Positions 2,157 through 61,214 of a stretch of DNA of 64,000 nucleotides are shown one piece after another. Every line of letters begins with the position of its first letter. The first letter of the stretch is position 1. This DNA comes from a bacterium (GTDB lineage: Bacteria; Patescibacteriota; Minisyncoccia; Sungbacterales; SURF-37): contig JAUSHI010000009.1 in NCBI GenBank assembly GCA_030648055.1, forward strand, positions 112,769-176,768, written 5' to 3'. The translations under genes were made by a program, and so were the position numbers. The notes below the pieces were generated by a model. That model was not told the DNA's origin, did no database searches, and worked only from the letters and a program-made list of their open reading frames with translations.

Positions 2157-2981
2157 ATGAAAACTGTATGCCTTTTCGGACCTAATTTGCCGCCATTTTT
2201 TGTGGATGCAAATCCGGCAAGTGAAGCGCTGGAAACCTGCGCGATCGACCTCTGGCATGCGGGGTTCGGTGTGTTGGTGCCGCATCTTAACGCTCCGCGC
2301 GCCGACGGGCTTAAAATCCCGTCATGGCTGCAGTTGAGTTTTGACGCGGCGGCAATCAGAAAGTTTTCAGATGCCGTTTTTGTTATGCCGGGATGGGAAA
2401 GCGATGATTCTGTGTGGGCGCGGGTAGCGCTCGCGGAAGAAGCGGGAAAGTCCGTGTTTGAATCTCTGGAACAGATTGTTCGCTGGCGCGAAGGTAAACC
2501 CCATGTAACTTTGAAAGGCGTTTTCGGCGAGGTGCTGTGGAATATTGATTTGGTAAGGCCGATCAAGATCGTCTTTGTCGTCGGTAAGTATTTTGTCGGT
2601 GAAAAGAAAGGCGATATCTGGGTTCCTGACCGGAACGCGATTCATGAGAACATTCTTGGGGCGAACCGTGTTGCGGTAACGCTATGGAATGAGGGTATCG
2701 GCGCTTTCACGCCGCACAATAACACGCATCACTTCGAATTGAAGACGCGTATCGGGGAGCCGATCTATCAGGAATTCGATCAATTGCTTCTGGAGCGTTT
2801 CACCGAAGCGCTTGTTGTGCTTCCGAGTTGGGTGAACTCAACTGGCGCACCGAAAGAAGTGGCCAAGGCCCAGGGGTTGGGACGGCTCGTAATAGATGCG
2901 TACGATTTGAAATCCATTCGGAACTGGCGCGACGGAAAAGGCAGTGTGAATGTCATCGCGACCGTATTGGCGGAAAAATAA
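2157..2981 (+). CDS. Tandem-duplicated DUF4406 / nucleoside 2-deoxyribosyltransferase-like protein
   Basis: Two ~130-aa halves share one pattern: VCLFGP..VLVPH..DAVFVMPGWESDDS and IVFVVGKY..AFTPH..EALVVLPSWVNSTGAPKEVAKA. GAAGGGG RBS-like upstream. Confidence 0.6.
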   Translation: MKTVCLFGPNLPPFFVDANPASEALETCAIDLWHAGFGVLVPHLNAPRADGLKIPSWLQLSFDAAAIRKFSDAVFVMPGWESDDSVWARVALAEEAGKSVFESLEQIVRWREGKPHVTLKGVFGEVLWNIDLVRPIKIVFVVGKYFVGEKKGDIWVPDRNAIHENILGANRVAVTLWNEGIGAFTPHNNTHHFELKTRIGEPIYQEFDQLLLERFTEALVVLPSWVNSTGAPKEVAKAQGLGRLVIDAYDLKSIRNWRDGKGSVNVIATVLAEK

Positions 2982-2984
2982 AAT

Positions 2985-3014
2985 AAAAAACCGGGCTTAA
3001 CGAGCCCGTTTTTA
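2985..3014. terminator. Bidirectional terminator between convergent genes
   Basis: A-run, CGGGCT-taacg-AGCCCG, T-run. Overlaps the stop of the minus-strand HAD gene. Confidence 0.6.
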
Positions 3015-3698
3015 TTTTCCGCTTCGTCTTGTGTGCACAGGGTATACCATATGTCTTTGTTCGTAGATGTGGTGAATCCAGTTAATGAATCCCTCCAGAC
3101 CCTTGAGGTTGTGCATAATTTTGTCTGGTTCTGCGTTGGCCAAGCGCGTGTATGAGCAGAATCCGCGGGCCGAGCCCACCACATAACAGCCGATTTCCCG
3201 CGCTAGTTTGAGGATCTCATCCATGTCATCCACGAATACCAGTTCATCCGCGGTAATTCCTTTCTCAATTATTACATCCGCGAGGGATTGGATTTTATCG
3301 GGGACTGATACTCCGCCTTTTACATTAGTAATCATTCCATCAAGACCGTAGAGCTTAAGAACTCTTTCAATGTCTTTTTTCGGGTGGCCGCTCACTACGC
3401 GTGTTTCAATTCCGCGGTGTGAGAGCCAGCGGAGTGTGTCATGCACATCCGGAAAAAGATTCGGCCGCGGTTCTTTCCGGGTTAAGGCAATAAACCGCCG
3501 AGTGGCTTCCTCGGTGTTTTTAATGGCGTACTGCAAAAAAAATTCTTTGTTGGTGGTTTTTGCGCTTTCGCGGAATTCCCAGAGCGTCACCGGCTCTTTG
3601 CCGTAGTGCGCGAGTACCGTGTTGAAGTGCTGCACATAAATTTCCGCGCTGTTGCAGAGCACCCCGTCCCAGTCAAAGACGACCACTTTGGTTTTCAC
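3012..3698 (-). CDS. HAD-superfamily hydrolase (phosphatase-like)
   Basis: Motif I VVFDWDGVL at the N-terminus. Later SGHPK and VFVDD motifs typical of HAD phosphatases. Confidence 0.8.
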   Translation of the reverse strand: MKTKVVVFDWDGVLCNSAEIYVQHFNTVLAHYGKEPVTLWEFRESAKTTNKEFFLQYAIKNTEEATRRFIALTRKEPRPNLFPDVHDTLRWLSHRGIETRVVSGHPKKDIERVLKLYGLDGMITNVKGGVSVPDKIQSLADVIIEKGITADELVFVDDMDEILKLAREIGCYVVGSARGFCSYTRLANAEPDKIMHNLKGLEGFINWIHHIYEQRHMVYPVHTRRSGK

Positions 3699-3790: not shown

Positions 3791-3906
3791 TCCCGCACGA
3801 AATCGCGGACGCGTGTATACTATATATGAATTTTGTTAGAAAAAGTTTTATTAATAATAATTTGGAGCGCGGGATATTCTGCGTCCGCGTCCTATTTCGT
3901 ACGGGA
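3791..3906 (+). repeat. Palindromic MITE-like element, family C copy 1
   Basis: Terminal inverted repeats TCCCGCACGAAAT..ATTTCGTACGGGA, flanked by TGAA on both sides. The last A of the element plus flanking TG forms the ATG at 3906. Confidence 0.7.
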
Positions 3907-16522: not shown

Positions 16523-16936
16523 ATGCCTTTCCCATTCAAAAATTTTATCCCGTTAGAGATAGGAAACGCCCAAGGCGTTTCCGTAGCTATGATGCTGGCA
16601 GTATATCGCCGGTGTTTTCTCTACTCTGGGCAGGATGATAAAAAAATAAGGTTTGGATCTCTAACGGGATCCATAAAAAAAGGGGAAAAATACATTATGG
16701 TTGAAAACGGCAAGCCCGAATACGTGGTCATGCATTATGATGATTATGCCGAACTTATTGAAAGAAAAAATGTTGAGAATATGAATATGGTCGGGGATAG
16801 TTCTTTTGGCTTTCCTTCTGAAATAAAAAACGTGGCAATTCGCAACGAGGACACCTTTGTCCCAAAGGCCGCGTTTTTTGGCTCTAATTTGCCGCAGGAT
16901 ATTTCTAAAATTCGTCTTGAAGATTTGCCGTTATAA
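16523..16936 (+). CDS. Hypothetical protein with a Phd/YefM-antitoxin-like segment
   Basis: KKGEKYIMVENGKPEYVVMHYDDYAELIE resembles the Phd/YefM core. The start codon is uncertain. Confidence 0.4.
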   Translation: MPFPFKNFIPLEIGNAQGVSVAMMLAVYRRCFLYSGQDDKKIRFGSLTGSIKKGEKYIMVENGKPEYVVMHYDDYAELIERKNVENMNMVGDSSFGFPSEIKNVAIRNEDTFVPKAAFFGSNLPQDISKIRLEDLPL

Positions 16937-29856: not shown

Positions 29857-31122
29857 ATGTTTCAAAAACTTTTGTTGATGTTTAAGCTTCCGGATTTGCG
29901 CAAAAAGATTTTTTTTGTGCTTGGGGTTCTTTTGGTGTTTCGCTTGGTCGCCGCGATCCCAGTGCCGGGGGTTGATCCCATAAGACTTAAAGCTTTTCTC
30001 GCTGGAAATCAATTTTTCGGTCTTTTGGATATTTTTTCCGGAGGCGTACTTGGTAATCTTTCCATCGTAATGCTTGGCGTTGGCCCTTACATCACCGCGT
30101 CCATTATCATGCAGCTTTTGACCATGCTTTTCCCGTCGCTTAAAGAAATGTACCAGGAGGAGGGTGAGGCGGGGCGCCAAAGGTTTAATCAATACTCCCG
30201 TCTTCTTACCGTGCCGCTTGCCCTGCTTCAGGGTTACGGGCTTTTGATCATTCTTGTCCGCCAGCAAATTATTCCCCAGCTTGGGTTTTTTGGTTTTGCA
30301 ACCAACTTGATTATTGTGACCGCCGGGACTCTCTTTCTTATGTGGCTCGGTGAGCTTATTTCTGAAAAAGGCATTGGCAACGGTATTTCTCTTTTGATTT
30401 TTGCCGGTATTGTCTCAAGAATCCCCATTGATCTTCGGCAGACTCTTTTTACTTTTGACTTTTCACAGCTTCCGTCCTACCTTGCTTTTTTGGCGGTCTC
30501 ACTCGTTGTTATCGCGGGTGTTGTGGTAATCACGGAAGGTCAGAGAAATATTCCCGTCTCCTACGCAAAGCGTATTCGCGGAAATCGCGTATACGGCGGA
30601 GTTTCAACCCATCTTCCGCTTCGCGTTAATCAGGCCGGAGTTATTCCGATTATCTTCGCGGTCTCGCTTATTCTTTTCCCGGGCCTCATTGGCAACTTTT
30701 TAGCAGTTGTTCCGAATCCCGCCGTGCAGTCTATTTCGCGCTTTTTGATTGAGCTTTTGAACAATCAGTTGCTTTACGGGTCTTTTTATTTTCTGCTTGT
30801 TTTTGCTTTTACTTATTTTTACACCGCGGTTACTTTTGATCCCCAGGCGATTGCCGATAATCTTCAAAAGCAGGGCGGTTTTATTCTCGGCATACGGCCC
30901 GGCAGGCCAACCGCTGAATATCTTTATCGCATTCTTAATCGTATTACGCTTGCCGGAGGACTTTTTTTGGGCGTAATCGCCGTCTTGCCTCTTATCGTGC
31001 AATACGCTTTCGGTCTTCGGACCCTGACCATCGGCGGCACCTCGCTTCTTATCGTGGTGTCTGTGCTTCTTGAGACAATGAAACAGATTGATGCCCAGTT
31101 GGTGATGCATGAATATGAGTGA
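29857..31122 (+). CDS. secY: Preprotein translocase subunit SecY
   Basis: 421 aa, 10-TM pattern. GVGPYITASIIMQLL, WLGELISEKGIGNGISL motifs. Confidence 0.96.
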   Translation: MFQKLLLMFKLPDLRKKIFFVLGVLLVFRLVAAIPVPGVDPIRLKAFLAGNQFFGLLDIFSGGVLGNLSIVMLGVGPYITASIIMQLLTMLFPSLKEMYQEEGEAGRQRFNQYSRLLTVPLALLQGYGLLIILVRQQIIPQLGFFGFATNLIIVTAGTLFLMWLGELISEKGIGNGISLLIFAGIVSRIPIDLRQTLFTFDFSQLPSYLAFLAVSLVVIAGVVVITEGQRNIPVSYAKRIRGNRVYGGVSTHLPLRVNQAGVIPIIFAVSLILFPGLIGNFLAVVPNPAVQSISRFLIELLNNQLLYGSFYFLLVFAFTYFYTAVTFDPQAIADNLQKQGGFILGIRPGRPTAEYLYRILNRITLAGGLFLGVIAVLPLIVQYAFGLRTLTIGGTSLLIVVSVLLETMKQIDAQLVMHEYE

Positions 31123-31207
31123 TGTCCCGATAAAAATTGAATTTGCAATTTTTATCGAGGATCCTCGATTTCGCTACGCCACTTTTTGTGGCGGCGAAAT
31201 CGGGACA
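31123..31207 (+). repeat. Palindromic MITE-like element, family B copy 1
   Basis: 9-bp perfect TIR TGTCCCGAT/ATCGGGACA. Three internal hairpins including the central palindrome ATCGAGGATCCTCGAT (31154..31169). CATGAATATGA occurs on both sides. Confidence 0.7.
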
Positions 31208-31244
31208 TGAATATGAATAGCTTTGTCGGGTTACGGTTTTAGAT

Positions 31245-31276
31245 AAAAAAATCGCGCCTGGGTTAGCGCGATTTTC
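31245..31276. terminator. Bidirectional terminator
   Basis: A-run, ATCGCGC-ctgggtta-GCGCGAT, T-run. Overlaps the stop of the minus-strand kinase gene. Confidence 0.6.
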
Positions 31277-31925
31277 TTTTGAGCCCCAGAGATGAAAGAA
31301 TTTCTTTTAGCTTTTTGTGAACTGGTTCTTTGTCGTCGTAGTTATTGGTGATGACGAAGGGCGCCTTGCTTATTATCCAGTTAACTTCGCGTTCAATGGG
31401 TGAGTGTTCGCCGGTCCCCCTTTTTCTGTCCCCCATAAATTCATTGAAAGTCATTTTTCCTTCATCGCGTTTTTGGGTTTTGTGAGCGGCATCTTTAAGC
31501 GCGCGCGCGTATCGGACTTTGGGGTCGGCCGTGACGCAGATGAGGATTCCTTTTCTCTTTTCCACGAACGCGCGGTATTCTTCTTTGGTGCGGATGGCTT
31601 CAACAAGCGCGATTTTCGGTTTTTCCGTATCCAGCATGTGGGCAACTCTTCGCATATACGCGGATTCACCAAGAAGCGGATAGAGGAGTTTGTTTACGCC
31701 GAAAAGCGCGTGGTAAACCCTGCGGTCGGCTTCCAGGCCCAAGATTTTAGCGATAAGCATGGGCGCGTCAGCAATGCGAAGATGCTTTACGCTTTTGTAG
31801 TTTCTGACAATATATTCCACGGCCACATCCTTTCCCGCTTTACGCGGACCGGCAACTGCGATAATTTTTATTTTCTGGCGTTTCCAGCTGGAAATGGCCC
31901 TGTTGAGTTCTGATTTGGTAAGCAT
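31263..31925 (-). CDS. T4 gp1-like deoxynucleoside-monophosphate kinase family P-loop protein
   Basis: IIAVAGPRKAGKDVAVEYIVRNYKSVKHL parallels T4 dNMP kinase LSGVKRSGKDTTADFIMSNYSAVKY. The C-terminal FVITNNYD..KLKEIL parallels LVITNDGS..KIKNTL (from memory). Confidence 0.55.
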   Translation of the reverse strand: MLTKSELNRAISSWKRQKIKIIAVAGPRKAGKDVAVEYIVRNYKSVKHLRIADAPMLIAKILGLEADRRVYHALFGVNKLLYPLLGESAYMRRVAHMLDTEKPKIALVEAIRTKEEYRAFVEKRKGILICVTADPKVRYARALKDAAHKTQKRDEGKMTFNEFMGDRKRGTGEHSPIEREVNWIISKAPFVITNNYDDKEPVHKKLKEILSSLGLKRKSR

Positions 31926-35989: not shown

Positions 35990-36496
35990 TTGTTCTTTGT
36001 TTCTATAAGCCGAATCCTGTCCTCTGCCTTACGGCAAAGGGGTGATTATCTGTCTAGGCCCGGAATTGCTTCGCGGGCTCAAGCGGGTATTCCCTATAAA
36101 AAATACTTGGGATCCCCTTGCACCAGGTAGGAGTTTTTCTTATCCCGCCAGTCGCCTGCCGGAACTGTGGGCTCTTACCCCACTCTTTTCACCTTTGACC
36201 TCCTTCGCATTGAAAACCTTTAGAGTTTTCGTAACGACGATCGGTAGTATTGTCTCTGTGACACTGTCCCGTTCTCCCTCCCCAATTTTGCACCCGAGTT
36301 ATTCAGTCGAATCAATCGCGATAAGCAAAATCATTCTTTACTGTCTATTTATCTCTGATGCAAAACTGGAGAGGGATATGGTGGCTGTTAGCCACTACCA
36401 CTTTTTTCCAGCTTAACGCTGGAAGGTGTTCGGACTTTCCTCACCAAGCACATAAAAAGTTATGTGCTTGGCGCAATCACCCGAAACAAAGAACAA
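35990..36496 (-). ncRNA. rnpB: RNase P RNA (bacterial type), unusually long at ~507 nt
   Basis: Minus strand carries GAGGAAAGTCCGAAC (CR-I/P4) and GACAGGATTCGGCTTATAG (CR-V/P4). P1 is TTGTTCTTTGTTTC/GAAACAAAGAACAA. Its own TTGCTT-17-TATACT promoter lies just upstream. Confidence 0.85.
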
Positions 36497-44231: not shown

Positions 44232-45008
44232 TTAAAAATCAGATATTTTTTCAAGTTTGGCGGCAGACTTAACAATTTTGACAAATTCGATCGGATGCAA
44301 GCTTGCCCCGCCAACGAGCATGCCGTCCATGCCGCCGCCGTTTGAAGAAACAAACGGAGCGGCGTTTTTTGCGTTTACCGAGCCGCCATAGAGAATTCGT
44401 GTTGATGTATTAGTTGTTTTCCACAGGCGTTTCAGTATTTCTTGTATTGCCGCGAGCGCTATACGAGCGTGCTCCGGAGTTGCCGAGAGGCCGGTGCCGA
44501 TAGCCCAGACCGGCTCATAGGCGATAACGCCGTTCTTGAATGCAATTTTTGAGATGCCGTTCAGGTCTTTTTTAAGTTGTGTTTCCAATATCCTGCGTAT
44601 TTTTATTTCCGGCATACGTTTTTTCTCGCCGATGGCGAGCACCGGAATAATTCTATTTTTTAAAGCTGTTTTTATTTTTTTATTGATTTGTTTATCCGTC
44701 TCACCCAGCGCCCTTCGTTCGGAGTGGCCGATTATGCAGTAGCTGACGCAATCATCCCGCAGCATATCGGCCGAAATTTCGCCGGTGTAGGCGCCCCTTT
44801 CTTCCCAAAATAAATCTTGCGCTCCAAGTTTTGCTTTACGTAGTACCTTGGCGATGGGCACAAGGAATGGAAAAGGGGGCGCGACAACTATTTCTGCGTT
44901 AGGAGCATATTTTGCGCTTTTTTCTATTTTTTGGGCAAGCAGGACCGCTTTAGCAAGCGAGGAAGGGTTCATTTTCCAGTTCGCAATTATGAGTATTTTT
45001 TTTGACAT
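44232..45008 (-). CDS. tpiA: Triosephosphate isomerase
   Basis: Start MSKKILIIANWKMN (M37 of the track ORF); IGHSERR, AYEPVWAIGTG motifs. Confidence 0.93.
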   Translation of the reverse strand: MSKKILIIANWKMNPSSLAKAVLLAQKIEKSAKYAPNAEIVVAPPFPFLVPIAKVLRKAKLGAQDLFWEERGAYTGEISADMLRDDCVSYCIIGHSERRALGETDKQINKKIKTALKNRIIPVLAIGEKKRMPEIKIRRILETQLKKDLNGISKIAFKNGVIAYEPVWAIGTGLSATPEHARIALAAIQEILKRLWKTTNTSTRILYGGSVNAKNAAPFVSSNGGGMDGMLVGGASLHPIEFVKIVKSAAKLEKISDF

Positions 45009-45018
45009 GGGTTCATTT

Positions 45019-45108
45019 TCTCCCGATTTTGTTCCCGCTGAAAGCGGGATTACAAAATCGAGGATCCTCGATTCGTTAACCGCGCTTTGCGCGGGACGAA
45101 TCGGGACA
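45019..45108 (+). repeat. Palindromic MITE-like element, family B copy 2
   Basis: TCTCCCGAT..ATCGGGACA ends. Same central ATCGAGGATCCTCGAT (45057..45072). Flanking hairpins TCCCGC/GCGGGA and CCGCGC/GCGCGG differ from copy 1. Confidence 0.7.
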
Positions 45109-45143
45109 GTTGGCAATGATTAATTTTTTTGGCATGTTTGAAT

Positions 45144-52110: not shown

Positions 52111-52252
52111 TCCCGTACGAAATCCCTGCCTGCCGGCAGGCAGGCAGGGCGGACGCGCATATATCATATATATGAATTTTGTTCTGGGAAAATTTAGAAG
52201 TAATAATTTGGGATGCGAGATTTTCTGCGTCTGCGTCCTGTTTCGTACGGGA
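52111..52252 (+). repeat. Palindromic MITE-like element, family C copy 2
   Basis: TCCCGTACGAAAT..GTTTCGTACGGGA ends with flanks TGAG|TGAA. Carries a nested (CCTG)2/(CAGG)3 near-palindrome at 52124..52149. Its last A plus TG forms ATG 52252. Confidence 0.7.
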
Positions 52253-61093: not shown

Positions 61094-61214
61094 TCCCGTT
61101 AGAAGCCGTGGTCGCAGTATCGGAAATACATATTTAGTAATAGATGAAAAAGAAAATTTTAGAGTATCAACATAATAACTGGCAGGCGCTGACCGCGACC
61201 TGCTTCTAACGGGA
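61094..61214 (+). repeat. Palindromic MITE-like element, family C copy 3
   Basis: TCCCGTTAGAAGC..GCTTCTAACGGGA ends, flanked by TGAA|TGAA. Its last A plus TG forms ATG 61214. Confidence 0.65.

Follow-up and report, generated by a model that had tools for sequence, protein, structure and literature searches.

How does the end of a conserved gene come to be encoded twice, once on either side of a palindromic block of DNA? The question is raised by the 3' end of secY in a 64,000-nt stretch of contig JAUSHI010000009.1 (assembly GCA_030648055.1; the whole stretch is referred to here as the window), from an organism placed by its SecY homologs among Candidatus Sungbacteria. The original prediction answered it with an element that had been inserted at the extreme 3' end of secY, had duplicated its target and had left the original stop codon orphaned. 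The block is, on the evidence given here, one copy of a multicopy and apparently selfish mobile DNA element found mostly in Patescibacteria (candidate phyla radiation, or CPR, bacteria). We consider it reasonably probable that the locus as a whole reflects a mobile double-hairpin element which entered secY without a target site duplication (TSD), together with a replacement gene end acquired by recombination between alleles.

The sequence statements of that prediction all hold: an 85-nt block with a perfect 9-bp terminal inverted repeat and three hairpins follows the stop codon, and the HEYE end of the protein is encoded twice. The left repeat TGTCCCGAT (31123-31131) is perfectly complementary to ATCGGGACA (31199-31207), with the computed repeat extending to 10 bp (31122-31131 / 31199-31208), and the hairpins comprise CGATAAAAATTG/CAATTTTTATCG, the 16-nt palindrome ATCGAGGATCCTCGAT (31154-31169) and CGATTTCGC..GCGAAATCG around GCCAC/GTGGC. 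The in-frame end of secY is CAT GAA TAT GAG TGA at 31108-31122, and CATGAATATGA occurs at both 31108-31118 and 31206-31216, the second time followed by ATAG. The VMHEYE end is the norm for the clade, being found in about half of more than 100 Sungbacteria-type SecY homologs. The secY-end region has a predicted fold of -49.8 kcal/mol (z = -6.95), a stability equaled by none of 200 shuffles. An assembly artifact is excluded by Logan SRR13727527 (L119), an independent assembly with the identical arrangement. The predicted repeat block stands, but its exact extent was revised: family comparison assigns the outer TG and CA of the 85-nt block to the target, as bases of the ATG and CAT codons of secY, leaving an element proper of 81 nt. 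The features of the locus are listed below (coordinates are positions in the window; individual loci carry L numbers).

29857-31122, plus strand: secY coding sequence, 421 amino acids, ending ..QLVMHEYE-TGA; from the list of open reading frames (ORFs), with Pfam SecY recorded for the identical product
31102-31118, plus strand: repeat copy 1, 17 nt, GTGATGCATGAATATGA; the working secY end, together with GTGA
31119-31124, plus strand: GTGATG, the V-M codons left of the insertion point, which open repeat copy 2 with its first 6 nt and overlap the working stop codon
31125-31205, no strand: element proper, 81 nt, TCCCGAT..ATCGGGA; boundaries taken from copies where exact deletion restores coding sequence, from the fold and from arm covariation
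31125-31131, 31132-31153, 31154-31169, 31170-31198 and 31199-31205: layout of the element, in order TCCCGAT, arm 2 hairpin, core ATCGAGGATCCTCGAT, arm 4 hairpin and ATCGGGA
31206-31220, plus strand: CAT GAA TAT GAA TAG, the (probably) orphaned secY end; repeat copy 2 closes with 31206-31216, its last 11 nt

When the element is removed, the healed sequence reads ..CAGTTG GTGATGCATGAATATGA GTGATG^CATGAATATGA ATAG (the caret marks the insertion point), a perfect 17-nt tandem repeat with the element inside copy 2 at Met^His. The test described below for displaced gene ends, applied to this junction, returned an offset of -17 with 17/17 identical positions and a score of 34, the 99th percentile of chimeric-flank controls being 21. 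Read in the secY frame, the element itself gives TCC CGA TAA and hence a SecY ending ..QLVMSR-stop if there were no replacement end. The repeat junction instead generates GAG TGA, the GTGA at 31119-31122 giving the last base of GAG plus the TGA stop, and the protein is unaltered (..VMHEYE).

The view that the block is an inserted, repeated element was borne out by a second copy in the window, upstream of tpiA, and by at least 113 more, mostly in metagenome-assembled genomes (MAGs) of Patescibacteria. The family was scanned in genome_contigs, one genome per species, with the pattern CGAT-N(10-40)-ATCGAGGATCCTCGAT-N(10-40)-ATCG, which gave at least 118 loci, five of them chance core matches without ends. 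Family statistics rest on the matches listed, that is, at least 115 full-architecture copies (two in the window and at least 113 in genome_contigs). Among these, nearly all hosts are Patescibacteria/CPR MAGs (Sung-, Yanofsky-, Magasanik-, Wolfe-, Azam-, Giovannoni- and Harrisonbacteria, labeled Saccharibacteria and others), with up to about 15 copies per MAG. Within the window the 16-nt core occurs twice against 0.16 expected even at three mismatches, while the 9-mer end alone is not significant at one mismatch (13 matches against 11 expected), and other matches to TGTCCCGAT (42001, 42016, 56342) were rejected as family ends, being chance occurrences in coding sequence. The element pattern had no match in IMG/VR viral contigs, and a literature search with the core sequence and keyword combinations found no description of such an element. 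The family thus appears to be a small palindromic selfish repeat, kin in kind to the Rickettsia palindromic elements (RPEs), double-hairpin elements (DHEs) and MITEs (miniature transposable elements with inverted repeats), and undescribed as far as this search shows.

Full-architecture copies also occur in MAGs labeled outside Patescibacteria, namely L016, L019, L035, L090 and L103 (one Pseudomonadota MAG), about ten Gammaproteobacteria loci, and L015 and L076 (Bacteroidales/Bacteroidota); some copies under such labels have long G+C-rich arms. Either these MAGs are mislabeled or misbinned, or the family extends beyond CPR bacteria. In one Yanofskybacteria MAG (L077, L089 with two copies, L011) a longer inverted repeat, CCTGTGGATAAACGACTT..AAGTCGTTTATCCACAGG, encloses the element, forming a larger composite palindrome present in several copies.

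The common architecture is TCCCGAT-(arm)-ATCGAGGA joined to TCCTCGAT-(arm)-ATCGGGA, with element lengths of about 50-105 nt. Since the scan and census patterns demanded these ends and this core, their invariance in the collected copies carries no independent weight; they are also kept in two copies detected without the patterns, L142 with both ends and 15/16 core bases and L141, which is degenerate, with a left end of TTCCGAT. The core ATCGAGGA/TCCTCGAT resembles both ends joined (ATCGGGA/TCCCGAT). The arms are highly variable, 205 of 220 having distinct sequences in the copies listed, and yet 84% of them form at least four consecutive Watson-Crick pairs from the junction, compared with 0.5% of shuffled arms. 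Covariation was measured on a fixed-length alignment of the ends, the core and six junction-proximal bases per arm side. Across the five proximal pairs of both arms there were compensatory changes in 190 cells, against 60 +/- 7 in shuffles (0 of 500 reached 190), and the covariation score was 0.331 versus 0.088 when shuffled and no more than 0.127 in slid-partner controls. One-sided changes of the G-U type are nearly absent, and G-U pairs amount to about 2%. Since the conserved parts are palindromic, so that both strands look alike, and wobble pairs are lacking, these alignments point to recognition of the element as DNA and not as RNA.

The minimum-free-energy fold consists of two hairpins side by side, and another description of the element is a tandem pair of hairpin units, TCCnCGAT..ATCGnGGA. 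Branch migration through the shared (T)CCnCGAT/ATCGnGG(A) segments can convert this form into a cloverleaf, whose four-way junction is perfect and leaves no linker unpaired.

At all sites with interpretable flanks, deletion of exactly TCCCGAT..ATCGGGA restores a sensible sequence. In the listed copies the base to the left is G in 63% and the base to the right is C in 63%. The two vary almost independently (40 copies with both, 31 with left G only, 31 with right C only, 11 with neither; odds ratio 0.46, p = 0.07, weakly negative). An additional stem formed by the flanking bases was considered and rejected, pairing beyond TCCCGAT/ATCGGGA being no commoner than with permuted partners, and because of this lack of excess complementarity we regard the flanking G and C as a target preference. 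Under the exact boundaries, a search of 110 copies for a fixed-length TSD at every k from 3 to 30 found only three matches, at k = 7 and all in 7-mer tandem arrays. A 3-nt TSD of TGA with the 85-nt boundaries was also discarded: it gave 16 matches against 3.3 expected, but these are mostly AAT, ATT or AAA from 7-mer arrays and A/T-rich flanks. As read from the flanks, insertion is precise, mostly at G^C and without target duplication.

These results bear directly on the explanation in which the block would be a classical MITE, moved by cut-and-paste by a DDE-type transposase, with CATGAATATGA as the TSD of a staggered cut. Such an origin would account for the perfect terminal inverted repeats, the TG..CA termini under the 85-nt boundaries and the direct repeat on both sides of the secY element; a subset of 54-nt copies does have abutting 7-nt direct repeats (L006, L091, L093), and a separate set of palindromes in the same window, family C, has TGAA on both sides. 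However, the 11-mers at secY do not abut the element, as GTGA (85-nt boundaries) or GTGATG (81-nt boundaries) lies between the left copy and the element, and the copies elsewhere lack a repeat of fixed length, the three in 7-mer arrays excepted. Copies inside genes keep the frame with no duplicated codons. Where a gene terminus is duplicated, the sequence past the element continues the displaced fragment instead of restarting it (tpiA, EF-G, LeuRS), and the repeats are variable, 17-69 nt long and different at synonymous sites; TSDs as generally known are far shorter and less variable than this. A staggered-cut TSD is accordingly extremely improbable, and this part of the original prediction, which had itself named copies without flanking duplication as evidence to the contrary, is withdrawn. 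The (A)TGA(A) junction that it had extended to the secY block is likewise a feature of family C, the flanks in the secY-element family being G^C.

Short copies (54 nt; 63 nt in L100) were noted in L006, L031, L091, L093, L100, L104 and L050, often within or next to tandem arrays of 6- or 7-mers, for example (GGAAATT)n or (CAAATTC)n. Copies of this kind in different host proteins have similar flanking peptides (..NFQFPI / PNSK..). For this subfamily, the mobile unit may be larger than the element, or insertion may create 7-nt repeats.

Some copies are found inside genes. Once the element is deleted, the junctions of 24 of the 115 listed copies are embedded in a long ORF at a depth of 40 codons or more. 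For 21 of the 24 the element has a length divisible by three (51-93 nt), with the frame open through the element and all three phases used; the other three look like spurious low-complexity ORFs. In all 21 the reading frame is continuous and no codons are duplicated, and among the remaining copies the lengths modulo 3 are distributed as 35/25/34. About 18% of listed copies are intragenic. Pfam-confirmed hosts are a class I aminoacyl-tRNA synthetase (aaRS), GyrB, FolD, UvrC, TopA and UvrA, the element being placed between mapped Pfam domains in four of the six and within a domain in FolD. Since in-gene copies are free of duplication, the duplication of gene termini is probably not a product of the insertion chemistry. 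In L029 (GyrB) and L095 (TopA) extra element-like peptides were observed, QGSSVLQSKIGT near the GyrB N-terminus and RRGSSIS at the TopA C-terminus, which hints at older degenerate in-frame copies missed by the exact-core search.

At secY, duplication nevertheless accompanied insertion, as had been proposed. The duplicated secY end is found in none of 21 element-free relatives (L120-L122 and 18 of 19 metagenome loci), so that relatives already carrying the tandem repeat, the other observation named beforehand as contrary to the prediction, were not seen in this set. In the nearest of them (92-93% SecY identity) the spacer is too diverged for reconstruction of the pre-insertion sequence. To establish how general the association is, the element was deleted from each copy and junction-spanning sequence was sought within 200 nt by ungapped junction extension, with two controls and a cut-off above the 99th percentile of chimeric-flank controls. 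Such sequence recurs in 20 of 102 copies (19.6%), compared with 15 of 616 random intergenic G^C sites (2.4%; odds ratio 9.8, p = 1e-9). Pre-existing duplicates acting as passive targets are rejected as the sole explanation by the difference between these two frequencies. A blastn self-comparison of healed loci was too insensitive for such short and diverged repeats and found five near-element pairs.

The duplicated termini follow a consistent geometry. Writing E for the element and Da and Db for the two parts of the terminus that it separates, 5' ends have the form [ATG..Da ^E^ Db][ATG Da Db .. real gene] (EF-G, tpiA, LeuRS, L15, L16, GatB, UvrB), and 3' ends the form [real gene .. Da Db stop][Da' ^E^ Db stop] (L7/L12, L33, secY); tRNA gene ends show the same geometry (L024, L025, L106, L118). 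In EF-G the orphan (L112, L022) is split before ^AGKT and is followed by a complete EF-G start. The second window copy of the element provides the tpiA case, with the following features.

45107-45135, minus strand: orphan tpiA 5' fragment ATGCCAAAAAAATTAATCATTGCCAACTG, encoding MPKKLIIAN(W), upstream of the element; matches the clade native N-terminus MPKKL(L)IIANWKMNP
45021-45106, no strand: second window copy of the element, 86 nt, with the same ends and core (core at 45057-45072) and unrelated hairpin-forming arms
45009-45020, minus strand: continuation of the orphan past the element, GAAAATGAACCC (..KMNP); abuts the real tpiA start codon (45008-45006)

The tpiA orphan therefore reads MPKKLIIANW^KMNP and is followed by the working MSKKILIIANWKMNP.. 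sequence. The continuation GAAAATGAACCC is identical at 12/12 positions to the real tpiA sequence after AACTG, and is identical in L142, which has the same arrangement. The clade-typical MPKKLIIANWKMNP is what the orphan in the window encodes, in contrast to the working start, MSKKILIIANW... The site AACTG^GAAAATGAA is occupied in the window, in L142 (74% TpiA identity) and in a Wolfebacteria MAG (L081), and relatives of similar distance lack the element (L143, L144). The EF-G site GACG^CCGG is likewise shared by a Sungbacteria MAG (L112) and a Saccharibacteria-labeled MAG (L022) with the same orphan boundaries, and the junction-proximal 15 nt are common to the two orphans but not to the working genes. 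In the public annotation of the tpiA locus (window 44232-45116, minus strand), the 294-aa TpiA (P0121, from a 245-kb NCBI MAG contig) starts at a TTG that lies upstream of the element, and P0121 thus gains a 36-residue N-terminal extension from the element (..NESRILDFV..GENEP). The same happens to P0124 (283 aa), from a relative.

A comparison of the two versions of each terminus indicates where they came from. In 12 orphan/real pairs (167 codons), 69 codons are identical, 80 differ synonymously and 18 non-synonymously, and the nucleotide differences at codon positions 1/2/3 number 19/11/95 (95 of 125 at the third). Since a duplicate decaying in place would not preserve the protein sequence, this pattern suggests that the two termini would derive from different functional alleles which had diverged in separate lineages. 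No donor for the replacement termini was identified.

These same comparisons weigh on a simpler explanation with no second allele, in which the hairpin stalls replication or shields a flap and the 17 nt are duplicated in situ by slippage, template switching or flap ligation. Structured flaps and hairpins do promote duplications and expansions in FEN1/flap and slippage models, the two 17-nt copies at secY are 100% identical, and several copies lie in tandem arrays of their own flank ((GGAAATT)n in L006, L031, L091, L093 and L100), which suggests local repeat instability. Yet a contiguous Da-Db could not be templated from an allele split by the element unless the polymerase skipped it, no microhomology is found at the repeat boundaries under this reading, and in the longer cases the differences number 95 at third positions and 30 at first and second positions together, while few amino acids change. 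The copy that looks native is moreover the orphan and not the working one. We therefore regard in-situ duplication as unlikely.

Under the reading favored here, with insertion followed by replacement from another allele, it matters which of the two secY ends is native. The evidence comes from two analogous loci. One distant relative, L141, has the same secY arrangement at the same ATG^CAT site, while its flanking secY sequence differs from that of the window at many synonymous positions. Its orphan CATGAGTATGAATAG continues directly into an adk-like gene (MSMNRAKVAKAK..), colinear with the element-free L139, where the secY end and the adk-like gene overlap at ATGAATAG. At secY in L141, and at tpiA in the window, it thus appears to be the native terminus that was displaced as the orphan, and the working one would have arrived with the element. 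By analogy, the downstream HEYE-TAG in the window is probably the orphaned native end and the in-frame HEYE-TGA the replacement, so that the predicted orphaning of the original stop remains probable. We stop at "probably" because the closest relative, the element-free L120, ends like the working copy. The element of L141 (1681-1810, reverse-complement coordinates) is degenerate and composite, with an extra hairpin unit seemingly in the core center (ATCGAGAATCC[CCCGAT..ATCGCGGG]TCCTCGAT) and a further unit following, which suggests that arrays grow through insertion of units into the palindromic joint.

A mechanism can be proposed on this basis. The folded element, as single-stranded or cruciform DNA, would be recognized by a protein, given that the arms are free to vary provided that Watson-Crick pairing is held. 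At secY, the element entered at the boundary of the ATG (Met) and CAT (His) codons, with four codons remaining ahead of the stop. Insertion alone would truncate SecY to the ..QLVMSR-stop form described above; the complete ending CAT GAA TAT GAG TGA directly upstream keeps the gene intact, leaving the CAT GAA TAT GAA TAG, which we take as native, stranded downstream (the presence of both endings being observed). The empty secY allele expected under insertion plus replacement is GTGATGCATGAATATGAATAG. The replacement end would have come from recombination of the allele carrying the element with an intact one from another lineage. Compared with an empty allele, the replacement end and the element together would then form a heterologous insert between conserved coding flanks, and homologous recombination of DNA that has been taken up could move this cassette between genomes in a homing-like manner, orphaning the native terminus each time. 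The affected genes would be among the most conserved because recombination is proposed to use conserved coding flanks.

Several points weigh against this account. The closest relative, L120 (92% SecY identity, element-free), ends GAG TGA like the working end in the window, so that the working end could be native and the orphan foreign instead. The two 17-nt copies at secY are identical and only the last two codons differ, both synonymously; because of that identity, a foreign origin is not demonstrable for the secY copy. Chance could explain the 6-nt GTGATG to the left of the element, if a natural GAG TGA happened to be followed by TG. Given the GAG TGA end of L120, an equally good reading of TATGA[GTGA]TG is that an intact GAG TGA allele and the GTGATG of the element-bearing allele crossed over at a 4-nt microhomology. 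The orphan/real pairs were chosen by DNA similarity, which introduces a possible bias toward conserved stretches, though it should not favor differences at third positions. No gene-bearing parent element was found, matches in the window to the 9-mer end being chance occurrences in coding sequence. The account offers no route to the first arrangement of replacement end, element and orphan. EF-G is the hardest case: the P-loop motif is interrupted by the element there, and an insertion into a sole copy ought to be lethal. Nor does the account predict the share of terminus-type copies, about a fifth. Finally, the arms of the window and L142 copies at tpiA differ by compensatory changes (e.g. CCGCGC/GCGCGG versus CTGCGC/GCGCAG), and this retention of pairing could reflect selection for a host function rather than a purely selfish element.

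Such a function would be that of a DNA or RNA site useful to the host, i.e. a 3'-UTR (untranslated region) stabilizer, terminator, tRNA-like processing signal, protein-binding or recombination site, or DNA-uptake signal, the duplicated codons being incidental. The very stable fold directly after a stop codon is in keeping with this, as are the compensatory changes at tpiA and the persistence of ends and core in L142 and L141, which were found independently of the search pattern. In twelve 5'-end cases, read by eye, the terminal GGGA(G/C) lies 8-25 nt 5' of the real start codon, and the GGGA(G) could serve as a ribosome-binding site; the spacing fits a Shine-Dalgarno role, which, speculatively, is perhaps what selection keeps. 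Against this, Rfam returned no match at gathering score and only sub-threshold noise at E <= 10, the conserved parts are palindromic with both strands alike, and there is almost no G-U pairing. At secY the element is not followed by a T-run, and a separate terminator hairpin is present at 31245-31278. In-frame copies in many unrelated essential genes and in orphan fragments fit insertion, and close relatives lack the element at the same loci. A host-functional site is for these reasons a very unlikely explanation of the family.

Among known systems, the RPEs, compared here by description, are small, gene-less palindromic repeats of a reduced genome, often in frame in housekeeping protein genes and translated (review PMC10969869). 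The 21 in-gene copies of the secY-element family, all multiples of 3 nt and open, resemble them in this respect, but RPEs are about 150 nt long as compared with about 50-105 nt here, where hosts are mostly Patescibacteria MAGs. The secY-element family is also modular, with ends and core kept and arms replaced, and uses three phases with no single conserved peptide. Orphaned and replaced gene termini have, to our knowledge, not been reported for RPEs. A second likeness is to the mitochondrial DHEs, the repetitive hairpin-forming elements (RHEs) of sponges and the yeast GC clusters, which share two adjacent hairpins, multiple copies in intergenic and coding sequence and suspected mobility. The DHEs of Allomyces mitochondria lack target duplications (PMC2800124), as does the family described here. 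Distinct from DHEs and RHEs, and set apart from DHEs by description, are the location in bacterial chromosomes instead of organelles, the 16-nt core and 7-nt ends across many candidate phyla, and the four-way-junction fold.

The closest parallel to the exchange of gene ends is provided by fungal mitochondrial mobile ORFs (mORFs), where an in-frame C-terminus has been inserted, the native one is displaced downstream, the differences are mostly synonymous and horizontal transfer is indicated (PMC3630166). In the mORF gene hybrids (Allomyces atp6; Glomus atp6, atp9, cox2 and nad3), as, on the reading favored here, in secY (window, L141), tpiA (window, L142, L081) and EF-G (L112, L022), the replacement terminus is in frame and the native one displaced. 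The mORF inserts, however, encode a LAGLIDADG or GIY-YIG homing endonuclease, whereas the secY element has 81 nt and no ORF, and the secY-element family also affects 5' termini and tRNA ends. Outside these endonuclease-bearing inserts in fungal mitochondria, we know of no description of terminus replacement.

MITEs such as Correia/CREE, ERIC and Chunjie are similarly short and non-autonomous with terminal inverted repeats (7-nt TCCCGAT/ATCGGGA here; 9-10 bp at secY), and Chunjie can, according to a citation in PMC10969869, sit at a gene boundary without breaking the operon. They differ in having a fixed-length TSD, absent over the 110 copies here, and the ends of a parent insertion sequence (IS), none of which were seen in the window. 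The REP/REPIN palindromes (RAYT) and those of IS200/IS605 combine hairpin recognition, probably in single-stranded form, with TSD-less insertion, and paired hairpins are mobile (HUH/Y1 transposases). The collected copies have TCCCGAT/ATCGGGA ends in place of a GTAG or CGTC tag, and REP sequences are extragenic while about 18% of the copies in the secY-element family are inside genes. The secY element further differs from REP/REPIN in its tandem hairpins with a shared palindromic joint, and from IS200/IS605 in an apparent target preference on both sides (G^C) rather than one fixed 5' tetranucleotide.

These parallels allow a more specific proposal, which we put forward as doubtful. The double hairpin and the replacement terminus would together form a gene-less homing cassette for conserved gene ends (secY, fusA, tpiA, ribosomal proteins, tRNAs), spreading between distant Patescibacteria by recombination of DNA that has been taken up, perhaps by way of a structure-specific nuclease or recombinase that reads the element as a mimic of a Holliday junction and cuts empty G^C sites.

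Patescibacteria have tiny genomes with very little spare DNA and depend heavily on DNA uptake. If the interpretation is true, they contain a widespread and undescribed type of mobile DNA that has colonized essential genes in two ways, through in-frame translation and through terminus replacement. For annotation, it matters that element-derived peptides of 18-31 residues are hidden in aaRS, GyrB, TopA, UvrA and other proteins. Orphaned termini would be markers of recombination and could trace gene flow among uncultured bacteria. The persistence of ends and core, together with arms under a constraint of pairing only, points to a protein that recognizes branched or hairpin DNA and could become a new tool enzyme. 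Should gene-less homing prove correct, it would represent a new route for selfish DNA into essential genes without killing the host.

Downstream of the secY element, two further features were recorded.

31207-31242, plus strand: 11-codon relic ORF, MNMNSFVGLRF-stop, after the orphaned secY end
31245-31278, no strand: terminator-like hairpin outside the element, shared by the convergent secY and a reverse-strand 220-aa ORF; a homologous hairpin is present in the element-free L120

In its sequence, MNMNSFVGLRF is similar to the beginning of the adk-like gene, which in relatives overlaps the stop codon of secY, and may be a remnant of it. The reverse-strand 220-aa ORF (31263-31925) replaces the adk-like gene in the window and in L120; no Pfam hit is recorded for it, and it contains a P-loop-like AVAGPRKAGKD.

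The family C palindromes of the window are located at 3791-3906, 16548-16669, 52111-52252 and 61094-61214, and have lengths of 116-142 nt with 12-13-nt inverted ends TCCCG(T/C)(A/T)..CGGGA. Three of the four copies have TGA(A/G) to the left and TGAA to the right, a pattern suggestive of either a fixed target or a 4-nt target duplication. No family C insert was evident in the RNase P RNA gene (35990-36492), a candidate suggested by a one-mismatch match. At 52111, the real start ATG is formed from the last A of the element and the flanking TG. Family C-like elements also occur in L100 and L143. In L143, the element-free tpiA relative, a reverse-transcriptase gene (RVT_1, 2287-3381) adjoins tpiA, and a family C-like palindrome lies 5' of tpiA in the place of the double-hairpin element.

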